Origin: Leucoraja ocellata | Taxonomy: Eukaryota | Direction: 5' to 3' | Length of the DNA: 64,000 bases | Assembly: GCA_036785375.1 (NCBI GenBank) | Contig: JAWMAR010000053.1 | Span: 6,386,001-6,450,000 of the forward strand | The notes under the pieces: model-generated | Database searches by the model: none | The model's input: the letters and a program-made list of their open reading frames with translations, nothing else | Told to the model about the DNA's origin: nothing | Position numbers and translations under genes: made by a program | Shown here: piece by piece, positions 365 to 38,000 of the stretch | Numbering within the stretch: the first letter of the stretch is position 1 | How the letters are laid out: every line of letters begins with the position of its first letter

Positions 365-575
365 GCCAACAGAACTGGATGCCCTGGTGTTTGGCCATTT
401 GTTCACAATCCTTACAACTCAGTTGACCAATGATGCACTTGGTGAAAAGGTGAAAAATTATGAAAACCTCATAAAGTTTTGTAGAAGAATTGAGCAGAAC
501 TACTTTGAAGAGCAAGATCGCGAAAGCTCTTTGAGTTCAGCATCTGGGTACCCAAGAGGTTCGTCCACAAAGTAA
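365..575 (+). CDS. mtx2: Metaxin-2, terminal coding exon (GST-like C-terminal domain)
   Basis: Acceptor ttgtgctgcag| ends at 364; encodes [48 protein letters not shown]..., matching the vertebrate MTX2 C-terminus; stop TAA 573-575; Mtx2 is the known HoxD neighbour. Confidence 0.95.
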
Positions 576-1488
576 TTTTTATTTTAAAAAATGAGTAAAT
601 TATTGGAAACAAAATATTGCATTGTTGCAAAACAACTGGAGAATATGCAACAAGCTGATGGTCAAATTTGGTATGGTTAGTACAATTACAGTCCATAACA
701 TTTTAAGTGAAGCACTAACATATATCTGATCTTATTGTCAGTATGATGAGCCATTTTCTTGTTTTTGAAATGAATATAAATGTTACATACAACATGTTGG
801 AGCTGTACTGACATCGAATATATTAAAGAATAATGCAGAAAATCTAATGGTCCTCCCATCTTTGTCTTTTTAAGTTGGATGTAAACATGGTGACTTCTGA
901 TCATTCCCAAAAGCACAAGGGAAAAAGCATTTTGCATTGCACATAGGGATATTGTGTTAGCAGTTACAGCCCCAACTGCAATCAGTTTCCTTTATAATTT
1001 AACAACTGTATCCAAAGAAGATAGTTGTTGTTACACATTGTTTAGTCCCTGTTTTATTTTACATTCAAAGGGTGTCTTTCTCCTGCAATTAGCAAGAGGA
1101 TCATCTCTTGGGAGCCATTTACTTGTCCAAATCCAGTCAGCAGTCATAGGTCCTGCTCATTTGATGGCTGCATTTGGTATTGGTCTTGCATTAGATATGG
1201 TTGGTCTGGATTAAAATCTGCTTAACCTAATTGCTTTTGAAAAGCTGCACAGTACAAATATTTTCAATGCAATTTTGGTGTCAATTAACTTACAAATGTA
1301 GTTGACCTTGAACTCAAAAACCACAATATTATTTAGTTTGACTGTAAATGATATTGGAGGTTGAACTATTAAGTACGAAGCTGAGACTTTTTATTGAAGC
1401 CTTCTTGACCAGTATTGGAGAAATGAATGTGAGTTACAGAGGCAGGGTATGGTTTGTGTGACTCTGGCACCAGTACTGTGGAAAGTAG

Positions 1489-1604
1489 AAACATAGAAAC
1501 ATAGAAAATAGGTGCAGGAGTAGGCCATTCGGCCCTTCGAGCCTGCACCGCCATTCAATATGATCATGGCTGATCATCCAACTCAGTATCCCATACCTGC
1601 CTTC
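1489..1604 (-). mobile_element. 5'-truncated CR1-type LINE 3' end
   Basis: (aaacatag)n tail and chondrichthyan CR1 3'UTR motif ggccattcggcccttcgagcc; 7-bp TSD AAAGTAG at 1482-1488 and 1605-1611. Confidence 0.75.
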
Positions 1605-2380
1605 AAAGTAGGAGTTGAATAACTAGGATAGTCCCAGCTGAACCACCCTCTAGGAATCCACATAACCAGAGATGGAGAAGAGTTTTAACAGAATTTTGTG
1701 ATGCAAATGTGGTTTGCATGAAGGCTAGAAACTAAAGCCAGAAGTCACGTGGGAGTGGTAACAGTAACCAAACGGTCGGGTGAAGTATAAACAAATAAAT
1801 AATGGGAGTCCGTGAGAAAAGTTCAGTGATTTTAGGTTACAGATAGACAGGAAAGAACGGATGGTCGAAGGTAGCCTAGATGAGAGTTCATAGATTTGTT
1901 TTAGATAGTTCCTTACAGCAGCATGTCGAATCTAACAGAGAGCCGGCCATACTGATCAGCTAATGTGTAGTAAGGTGGGATAGCAGTTAATAACCCCATG
2001 GTTAAAGTGCCTTGGGTAGCAGCGATCATAGTACAAATGTATTTTACATTCTATTTAAGGGAGAGAAGAATCCACCCAAGACTAGGTTTATCGTGAGATC
2101 ACAAAAGCAAATCACTAAAGAGAACTTGCAAATTAAGTTAAGGAAATGTGCAATTGAGGTGCAATGGCCAATATTTAAAGGGATCTTTTGGAATACACAA
2201 TAAAAGCATGCCAATGAGAAAACAAATTTGATATCCTTTGTTAATAATAAAGAAACAATAACAAAATATTTAGAAAAAAACAATTTTACATAAATAGGTC
2301 ACAGGTCAGAAACTTGTACAGAAAATGAACATGAACAATGAATGACTAAAGGATTAATAGGTATGGAAATAGCTGGGTAG

Positions 2381-34644: not shown

Positions 34645-34844
34645 NNNNNNNNNNNNNNNNNNNNNNNNNNNNNNNNNNNNNNNNNNNNNNNNNNNNNNNN
34701 NNNNNNNNNNNNNNNNNNNNNNNNNNNNNNNNNNNNNNNNNNNNNNNNNNNNNNNNNNNNNNNNNNNNNNNNNNNNNNNNNNNNNNNNNNNNNNNNNNNN
34801 NNNNNNNNNNNNNNNNNNNNNNNNNNNNNNNNNNNNNNNNNNNN
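34645..34844. other. Assembly gap, exactly 200 N (likely unsized scaffold join)
   Basis: Round-number N run; sharp change from repeat-rich to repeat-free sequence across it. Confidence 0.9.
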
Positions 34845-37257
34845 CAATATAAACATGAAATATGATGACTGATTTTGCTGTCACGTGACCGTTTGCTCAA
34901 GGGTTCCTGGAGAGCTGCTGTTTATTGCCAAGAACACTAAACAACGCACTCACTTTTTTTCTGAGTGGGAGTTTAATATTTTTGGGAAGCATTTATTGTT
35001 CTCCACTAAATAAAACGGTAAAATCTTCATAACCCAATGAGCCACTTGTTTCTGTGAACGAGCTGGACGGAGTGATCTGTGTGCATTGAACCAAAGCACA
35101 ACGTTTGACTTGGGGAAGTGAGTTTATTGCTAATTTCATCAGCTTTTAATGCAGATGGAATAAACACGTTACAATTAAATATGCTGAAAAGTGTTTACTA
35201 TTTTTGCTGTGATATATTTGCAAGTGAAGTTAAAGAGGATTAATAACTTCTTTTGAATGTATCGTTTCTGATGGAACCAAGTGAGCAATTAATTAAATAG
35301 ATTTGTTTCTTTCAAGTAAATAATGACATTAAATGTAAAACAATATTTGCCACTTTTTGGCAGTTAATCGTTAAATGGAAAGGACTTTTCCTCGAGCGTT
35401 TTGTAATAAAAAGTGTGATCTTGCCACAAATAGATTCCTATGATTTGGCTGCTCACGGGCCGACGTTTTTTCTCGTTTAAAAAAAAGACATAAAATAATT
35501 TTTGAAAATAAATATTTATTGGCCATTACAAATGTGCATCGTGGGCGTTCCAACGCGCAATTCTGGCACAATCAGCAGTGGTTGCTAATAACAATGTGTG
35601 TGGGCGTGTTAAATATTTTAAAACTGCATTTTCCCCCCTAAGTAAAATGTTATTCTTTGTCTGCTGAACGCCTAAGGTGGACTTTTTTAAACAGCACACG
35701 TGTTCACCTTCAGAAAGAGGAAACGATTTGCATCTTTTCTTCGAAATAACTGGTGAATTTCTGGCTTAGACTGTGATGCATTTTATGTCCCTTTACATTA
35801 TTTTCAGCCACCATCAAGCGCAATAAATTTCATGGTCGTGAAAATTGATAAATGGCTGGGGTAAATATTTTTCGAGAATACAAGATTTTTAAAATCAAGG
35901 TTTTAACAATAAATTTGTAGGGGAGGGGCGGTCATATCAACATTGCTTTTACATGGAGTTTTTAAAAAACTTGTTACAATTAGATCTTTACCATTCTTTT
36001 GTTTTTAACTTTAGACTAGATATAGCGCGAAGATTATTTCCTCGAAGTAATGCACAAGATTTAGAAATATGAATATCACACGTAATAGGCTAATCGGGCC
36101 TCAAATTGTGCAAGACAAAGAAATCATTTCCACTCGAAATACAATTTTGATTTGCTATGTCATTCATTTGTAATACACTATGTAATACATTTGATTTGTT
36201 ATTCAGCGCTGGAAATGTATTCATATTTGGTTTATATTTTCAAATGTCACGCATTTCTTCGGGGGTACCCTGGTTGGAAGCTGGAAATTGAGTTATATAT
36301 GAACCTTTTGTTCTACCACCTCTTGTCAGTGGGTACTCATATATGACTATTCAGCTGCTAAATTCTTAGTCTAACAAAATGGCGCCTTTCCTTGGTATCG
36401 CTTGGGATTGCTAAGAGTTTTCTTCAGGAAAAACTATCTAATAACCGGGTAGTTTTATAATTGAAAATTACATACATCTTCATGCGAATGAAGAGGATCT
36501 CTCTAGTCTTTCAGGTATTAAAAACATAAGAAACATATTTGATATTTAATTATGAATAAAAATCTACAATGCAGCTTGAAAAATTGATCCTTTAGTGATA
36601 TATAAAACCTGATTTAAAAAAAATTGTTGAGATCCATAAGCCTGAAGGAGCTCCCACGATTTGTAATTAATTTAGTTTCTATAACAACCAATCTGTCTGT
36701 TATAAGGAACAGTAGTGTTATCATAAATAGCGAGTTTTGATTCATCCAGAACACAATTATTGCTATTTCTGTTTGCTTGTTGGTTGATTTTTTTTCTTTT
36801 TCTTTCTAGGAATGTGGCTGCTTTAGATTTTGGACTGACACAGATCATCTATGGGGCTGAATGTGATCGGCAGAGTCAGAATGGACACAATCAACTGTTA
36901 TATTTTATCCTTGCTTGCATATTTTTATGTTGATTTTTTTTAATACAAAGCTAATATATAATCTGTTATTTAAGAACGTAATTAGTTTTGGAAAATCTGC
37001 AATACTCGACATATTTATACTATTCAAAATAAAATATTGAAAATAATTTTATTTCTTGCACTTCATTAAATTTTCTCCGAACTCATTGTTTTCATTCATG
37101 GCATCATGCTGGTATGAACTGAGGTCCATAGTTGACTATGCCTCGGACCAAGAGGATTCTACTAAATGACACGACTTTCCAATTATTTCGTAGCTGCTGG
37201 AGATAGCACACATTAGAGTATCTCAGCAGAGTGTGTATGGATATGTTGGAATTCGAA

Positions 37258-38000
37258 CTAAAACTGCAATTGCTGCAAATCAGTGGAACTAAAACTGTCA
37301 CTTAAAAAGTCAAACACATTGGACGGAATAGCCAGCGTGTCTTCGTTTTCCAACAAAGACATATGAGGTAAATCTTCCAGCAGATCTAGACGGGGTTCGA
37401 TTGTAATTTTGTCTAAGTCCTCCAGAGATGGGATACTGAAGCTCTCCGGACTACTGGGGCTTGTTCCAGCTGAGCAGTTCTTCAGTATGGGTAGCAGACA
37501 GTCGGTTTCATCTGAACTCTGAGGGAAAGGATAGCTCTCCGATCCCTCAGTGGGGATCAGAGAGGTACCAACACTGAGCAGATCCCTGCCGATATCGCTC
37601 AATGTATCTTTATGTGTAAGACCACATATATCTTGCTTTGTAGTGCTTTCACTGTATAATGAACTCAACATTTTATTTAAAGGTGCCTCAAAACTTCTCG
37701 TGGAAAATCCACTCTGATTAACACTGTTGGCAACGTGGCGCTTTGATTCGGCATTTTGGCTTTGTTTGAATCGAGTTTGCCTCTTGTGTTTCATGCGCCT
37801 GTTCTGAAACCAGACTTTGACTTGCCGTTCTGTTAAATCGAGGAGAGCTGCGATTTCTACCCTCCGTGGTCTACAAAGGTATTTATTGTAATGAAATTCC
37901 TTCTCAAGCTCCAACAGCTGATTGTTAGTGTAAGTGGTTCGTAGTCTCCTGGAGCTGTCAAAAGGACTCCCGTTATCCGGCTCATTAAGCTCTTCGTTTT
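37258..38000 (-). CDS. hoxd2: Homeobox protein Hox-D2, exon 2
   Basis: Acceptor tttgttacag| at 38001; PG2 homeodomain [60 protein letters not shown]-terminus DLQQLQF; 743 nt, phase compatible with exon 1. Confidence 0.93.

Follow-up and report, generated by a model that had tools for sequence, protein, structure and literature searches.

In human and mouse, Mtx2 is co-oriented with the HoxD genes. Here, we analyzed a 64-kb stretch of a skate genome assembly (contig JAWMAR010000053.1, positions 6,386,001 to 6,450,000; hereafter the window), which contains the 3′ end of the HoxD cluster and in which HoxD1 is absent and Mtx2 faces the cluster. Vertebrate Hox clusters are described as repeat-poor, free of foreign genes and uniform in strand (PMC6613147), and three reports place Mtx2 next to HoxD in passages that state adjacency alone (PMC2080641; 10.1101/813451; PMC13012124). 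In red stingray and in whitebelly skate, HoxA and HoxD are reported without gain or loss of genes, and the stingray HoxD region is described as free of gaps and as having the usual two domains (10.1101/2025.06.08.657570). In the fin buds of zebrafish, the 3′ regulatory domain has been reported to drive both hoxd4a and hoxd10a (PMC12675288).

The closest described system is the little skate, Leucoraja erinacea, for which two datasets bear on gene order. In the first, the gene identifiers read agps 4583, nfe2l2 4585, hnrnpa3 4586, mtx2 4588, hoxd1 4589, LOC116975141 4590, hoxd3 4591, hoxd4 4592, evx2 4601 and lnpk 4602; 20 of the 20 matches listed, from agps to wipf1, fit one positional series, and hoxd1 is expressed with a baseMean of 241 (PMC9605692). 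We take these identifiers to be positional and 4590 to be HoxD2. The second dataset is a de novo assembly based on high-throughput chromosome conformation capture (Hi-C), in which a promoter anchor defined by trimethylation of histone H3 lysine 4 (H3K4me3) and automatically named Hoxa1-1 lies on Leri_7C at 21.70–21.71 Mb (two rows), with the anchors of Hoxd4 at 21.73–21.74, Hoxd11 at 21.77–21.78, Lnpk at 21.82–21.83 and Hnrnpa3 at 21.02–21.03 Mb (PMC10115646). A Hox1 gene at that position would be HoxD1. Gene identifiers in the latter dataset are not positional (Hoxd3 is LE07801 and Hoxd4 is LE08177) and were not used for order.

In the window, HoxD4, HoxD3 and HoxD2 are arranged collinearly and all on the minus strand, and Mtx2 is represented by its 3′ end on the plus strand, such that Mtx2 and HoxD2 are convergent in the assembly as drawn. 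The position directly 3′ of HoxD2, where HoxD1 would be expected, is occupied by a gap of exactly 200 N (34645–34844), which begins 2,413 bp past the HoxD2 stop codon. The little skate resembles the window in HoxD2 (360 of 362 residues identical), in the identical C-terminus of Mtx2, and in spacing, since its Hox1–Hoxd4 distance of 20–40 kb brackets the 28.5 kb between the HoxD4 promoter motif and the gap edge in the window (PMC10115646; PMC9605692). It differs in that HoxD1 is found between Mtx2 and HoxD3, where the window has a gap. The break coincides with an assembly gap, the type of sequence differs between its two sides, and a closely related skate carries HoxD1 at this place, as judged from the little skate gene order and the Hox1 promoter position. 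Because the break falls at an assembly gap and a closely related skate has HoxD1 in the normal place, an assembly error is the most likely explanation: we consider it likely that a contig broke at the HoxD1 promoter and that the contig with Mtx2 was attached to it in the wrong orientation. The arrangement is real in the assembled sequence, but probably not in the animal.

To search for HoxD1, we used homeobox profiles built from the homeodomains of the window itself, together with tblastn, hmmsearch and nhmmer. The 64 kb contain three homeoboxes, all on the minus strand, both at the protein level (three matches with E ≤ 4e-40, the next at E 0.62) and at the DNA level (three matches with E ≤ 5e-51, the next at 2.2). 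Used as a query, the group-1 part of a named gene model from a bird (P0010) retrieved the same three homeoboxes (E ≤ 4e-21) and, besides them, only a chance-level piece (E 0.25). Among protein representatives, no chondrichthyan sequence that could be named as HoxD1 was found to serve as a query. Across the 64 kb, neither a group-1 homeobox nor a degenerate remnant of HoxD1 was detected by any of the three tools. A preliminary description of this stretch had placed the three Hox genes on the minus strand with Mtx2 facing them and no group-1 homeobox in between, and the profiles, the bird query and protein matches all bear this out; its placing of the gap about 2.4 kb past the HoxD2 stop is likewise accurate.

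The 200-N gap is the sole gap between Mtx2 and HoxD2, but not the single discontinuity that the preliminary description had taken it to be: the window has four gaps, of 200, 223, 190 and 147 N, only one of which has a round size. The three irregular gaps (51997–58022) lie in low-complexity DNA within the cluster, between HoxD3 and HoxD4, the first two being separated by an island of 69 bp, and Hox gene order and strand are normal across them. The anomaly in order and strand starts exactly at the 200-N gap, and the breakpoint is the N run itself and not the contiguous sequence that a genuine split would be expected to show. Drafts made with the Hi-C scaffolder YaHS are described as carrying fixed 200-bp spacers (10.64898/2026.10.15.759518). 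The gap equals this spacer size, yet also falls inside the 147–223 range spanned by all other gaps of the window; it is probably an unsized spacer. The join resembles a scaffolder mis-orientation at such a spacer in its exact 200 N, in having one flank inside a young repeat, in the unrelated sequence types on either side and in the gene order broken at the gap (compare 10.64898/2026.10.15.759518).

The left contig ends inside a copy of this repeat (33938–34644, plus strand), next to which the preliminary description had placed the break, and the copy is cut by the gap approximately 100 bp short of its tail. Self-matching revealed an apparently full copy with a short five-base tandem tail at 28881–29750 on the plus strand, and the two copies are 84.7% identical over 784 columns (gap copy versus 28881–29653). 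The young repeat is roughly 870 bp long and rich in GC and CpG, and its open reading frames (ORFs) have no Pfam match; its tail was not found to the right of the 200-N gap. On the right, the sequence between the gap and HoxD2 (34845–37257) is CpG-rich, repeat-poor DNA of the cluster type, comprising the HoxD2 3′ untranslated region and the HoxD2–HoxD1 intergenic sequence, cut at the gap. Outside repeats, the observed/expected CpG ratio is 0.30 at 14.5–33.9 kb versus 0.75 at 34.8–37.3 kb, the interval of the CpG change-point (33,557–35,391) includes the 200-N gap, and self-matching repeats cover 21.7% to the left of the gap versus 1.7% to the right. This step in CpG and repeat content shows a sharp cut, but cannot on its own distinguish an artefact from a real breakpoint. 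We also looked for overlap or inverted repeats between the gap flanks and found none, the flanks having no sequence in common; strand skews in the left block were weak, of mixed sign and uninformative.

Close to the right edge of the gap, at 34880–34889 and 35 bp from the N run, lies a perfect 10-bp E-box palindrome, the sole one in the window, which is a candidate proximal promoter element of HoxD1. Only 2 of 100 shuffles hold such a palindrome anywhere. A looser version of the motif occurs at six places, two of which lie upstream of start codons, by 167 bp for HoxD2 and by 107 bp for HoxD4, and 0.8% of cluster positions lie within 50 bp of one. These positions suggest that the HoxD1 promoter may remain on the cluster side, with the break just before the HoxD1 coding sequence.

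Taken as a mechanism, the flipped-contig reading would run as follows. The HoxD contig would end at the HoxD1 promoter, and an unsized spacer of 200 N would link it to the wrong end of the neighboring contig, namely the one that stops in the young repeat; this neighboring contig would carry Mtx2 and, downstream of it, 20 kb of DNA or more. HoxD1 would still be in the genome, either on the plus strand where the flipped contig has its other end, or among sequence that is unassembled or unplaced. The preliminary description had likewise preferred a scaffolding error at the gap, a preference now strengthened by the little skate gene order and promoter position, and its geometric argument that one flipped block explains both anomalies is sound; what it had underrated is that HoxD1 may be hidden in an unsized gap.

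Several observations weigh against a flipped contig. The argument is built on one assembly of the animal, and a long left contig would be hard to flip. With 200 inside the 147–223 range, the gap could be a sized one, and the missing 100 bp of the repeat tail would fit in it. The little skate assembly that gives the identifier order was scaffolded on and annotated from the thorny skate, with a contig N50 of 214 kb (PMC9605692), and the order therefore speaks for one of the two skates and not for both independently; the identifiers also give order and not the strand of Mtx2. With a width of 10 kb, the Hox1 bin could include the HoxD2 promoter as well. As for the E-box, the test was made post hoc, the looser motif is absent within 400 bp upstream of the HoxD3 start codon, and a literature search gave no support for this motif at Hox1 promoters. 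The likelihoods that we attach to the readings are our own judgement. It is unlikely, in our view, that Mtx2 truly faces HoxD through an inversion outside the cluster, either in this skate or across skates, with the cluster intact and HoxD1 in place but hidden in an unsized gap. The order mtx2–hoxd1–(HoxD2)–hoxd3 and the Hox1 promoter position fit this equally well, because neither little skate dataset gives the strand of Mtx2: searches of the little skate supplements returned no Mtx2 coordinate or strand, nor does "Mtx" appear among the HiChIP table rows listed (PMC10115646). A bin at 21.62–21.63 Mb, contacted by Nfe2l2 and Agps, was considered as the little skate Mtx2 promoter and dropped, as promoter–promoter loops had been filtered out of those data. 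Such an inversion could also be tolerated, since mouse Mtx2 is described as behaving like a housekeeping gene outside global Hox regulation (PMC6626364). On the other hand, it requires two events, an inversion and a gene-swallowing gap, as against one flip at one break. Its premise is the co-orientation of Mtx2 with HoxD in mammals, and we found no report of an inversion of this kind in the literature searched.

Still less likely, and very unlikely in absolute terms, is a real inversion, specific to this lineage or individual, with breakpoints in the HoxD1 promoter or 5′ untranslated region and in the young repeat 20 kb past Mtx2, by which HoxD1 would leave the cluster and the nearest portion of the 3′ regulatory domain would be turned. 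Inversions can be mediated by repeats and, when heterozygous, also cause breaks in contigs. One event would account for both anomalies, the 200 N might be a sized gap in which the repeat tail lies, and the HoxD2 of the window, with 2 of 362 residues different from the Leucoraja erinacea reference, may come from another species. Against this, the breakpoint coincides with an assembly gap, and if the E-box belongs to the HoxD1 promoter, the inversion would sever the gene from it. An inversion also predicts hoxd1 ahead of mtx2, whereas the little skate identifiers show hoxd1 between mtx2 and hoxd3 (PMC9605692) and the Hox1 promoter adjoins the cluster; engineered inversions within mouse HoxD have moreover been called likely detrimental (PMC6613147). 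The resemblance to the engineered mouse alleles (inv(attP-Itga6), PMC6626364; internal inversions, PMC6613147) is that a real event would alter how the Hoxd genes face the 3′ domain; the difference is that those are laboratory alleles with other breakpoints, and that the skate block would be small, removing only HoxD1 and Mtx2. Least credible of all is a true loss of HoxD1 in the lineage through a deletion tied to the Mtx2 rearrangement. No homeobox remnant is present in the window at the protein or DNA level, and anterior HoxD genes are reported to have been lost repeatedly in bony fishes (PMC3707753), but the search covered 64 kb alone, and the promoter-like element persists to the gap edge. 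hoxd1 is, furthermore, present and expressed in the little skate (PMC9605692), and no gain or loss in HoxD is reported in the sharks and rays described (10.1101/2025.06.08.657570). In the open-licence literature searched (titles and the beginnings of abstracts, with most subscription papers outside), we came across neither a displaced HoxD1 nor an inverted Mtx2 reported for a cartilaginous fish.

All parts of the locus are ordinary members of known families. The last coding exon of the main Mtx2 isoform (365–575, plus strand; stop codon at 573–575) is 100% identical to Leucoraja metaxin-2 across 93% of the query and matches the Pfam C-terminal domain GST_C_6. The best matches are named metaxin-2, which rules out the wrong metaxin paralogue. 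The exon had been described as the terminal one, which holds for one isoform; an alternative last coding exon of 11 residues lies at 14495–14529 on the plus strand and is followed by poly(A)-type hexamers at 15127–15654. All 11 of its residues are identical to the C-terminus of Leucoraja isoform X2, and the splice sites are canonical, with an internal donor (GT) following 558 and an acceptor (AG). Mtx2 has two alternative C-termini. One is formed by read-through to the stop at 575 and is the form of shark and chimaera proteins; the other is formed by splicing to the small exon, which is 14 kb downstream, and corresponds to Leucoraja isoform X2. The alternative exon places the end of Mtx2 approximately 20 kb from the 200-N gap. 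The Mtx2 3′ intron contains a fragmented reverse transcriptase of a long interspersed nuclear element (2373–3739, plus strand; Pfam RVT_1, E 1e-31). A 384-bp, CpG-rich and nearly all palindromic element at 6299–6682, with 48-nt terminal arms (94% complementary) and inner arms, sits in another repeat within an Mtx2 intron and resembles a miniature DNA transposon. A Pfam match was obtained for 1 of the 11 long ORFs tested to the left of the 200-N gap.

HoxD2 spans 37258–38711 on the minus strand, with the hexapeptide in exon 1 (38366–38711; profile and protein match) and the homeobox in exon 2 (37258–38000; profile, Pfam, protein match and tree). The identity to the Leucoraja erinacea protein (P0002) is 99.6% and 99.1% in the two exon matches. 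HoxD2 is 74% identical to Callorhinchus HoxD2 versus 40–47% to HoxA2 proteins, and in a tree of 19 rows with midpoint root it forms one clade with Callorhinchus HoxD2 (100/100), separate from HoxA2 and HoxB2. On these comparisons, we assign the group-2 gene of the window as the ortholog of HoxD2, not of HoxA2 or HoxB2, and the tree placement rules out the wrong Hox cluster. In the same tree, three "Hox-A2-like" proteins from sturgeon, gar and reedfish (P0011, P0032 and P0044), two of which are long-branched, cluster with chondrichthyan HoxD2, and it seems that these fishes have kept a HoxD2 that is misnamed.

Upstream of HoxD2, the genes that we take to be HoxD3 and HoxD4 were named from Pfam matches, motifs and linkage. 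HoxD3 is encoded on the minus strand by coding exon 1 (44197–44632; profile) and exon 2 (41748–42496; homeobox and DUF4074 by Pfam), its assignment to the D cluster coming from linkage. HoxD4 is likewise on the minus strand, with exon 1 at 62837–63242 (profile) and the homeobox exon 2 at 62077–62387, presumably of group 4 from motifs and position. The looser E-box also occurs at 44077, in the HoxD3 intron, and at 55873, between HoxD4 and HoxD3, a possible upstream promoter of HoxD3. The single DR5-type retinoic-acid response element pattern of the window lies at 47265 (minus strand), between HoxD4 and HoxD3, and a single DR1 lies at 2296; none was found near the 200-N gap. An interspersed repeat fragment is shared between 5989–6056 and 43277–43344 (84% over 68 bp), and the latter copy, inside the HoxD3 intron, is the sole such repeat match in the cluster part. 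No RNA family in the window reached the gathering threshold.

As an artefact, the arrangement has curation value only, in that scoring of Hox content, the 3′ domain or synteny on this assembly would lead to the false conclusion that HoxD1 is lost or displaced. An inversion of Mtx2 outside an intact cluster would, if true, be of modest interest. A true split would mean that a Hox cluster is divided in a living jawed vertebrate, in animals whose wing-like pectoral fin expresses anterior Hox genes. It would break the vertebrate rule of one strand and no foreign genes (PMC6613147), and would make it possible to test in a natural case how anterior Hoxd genes are controlled by the 3′ domain in fins (PMC10115646; PMC12675288).

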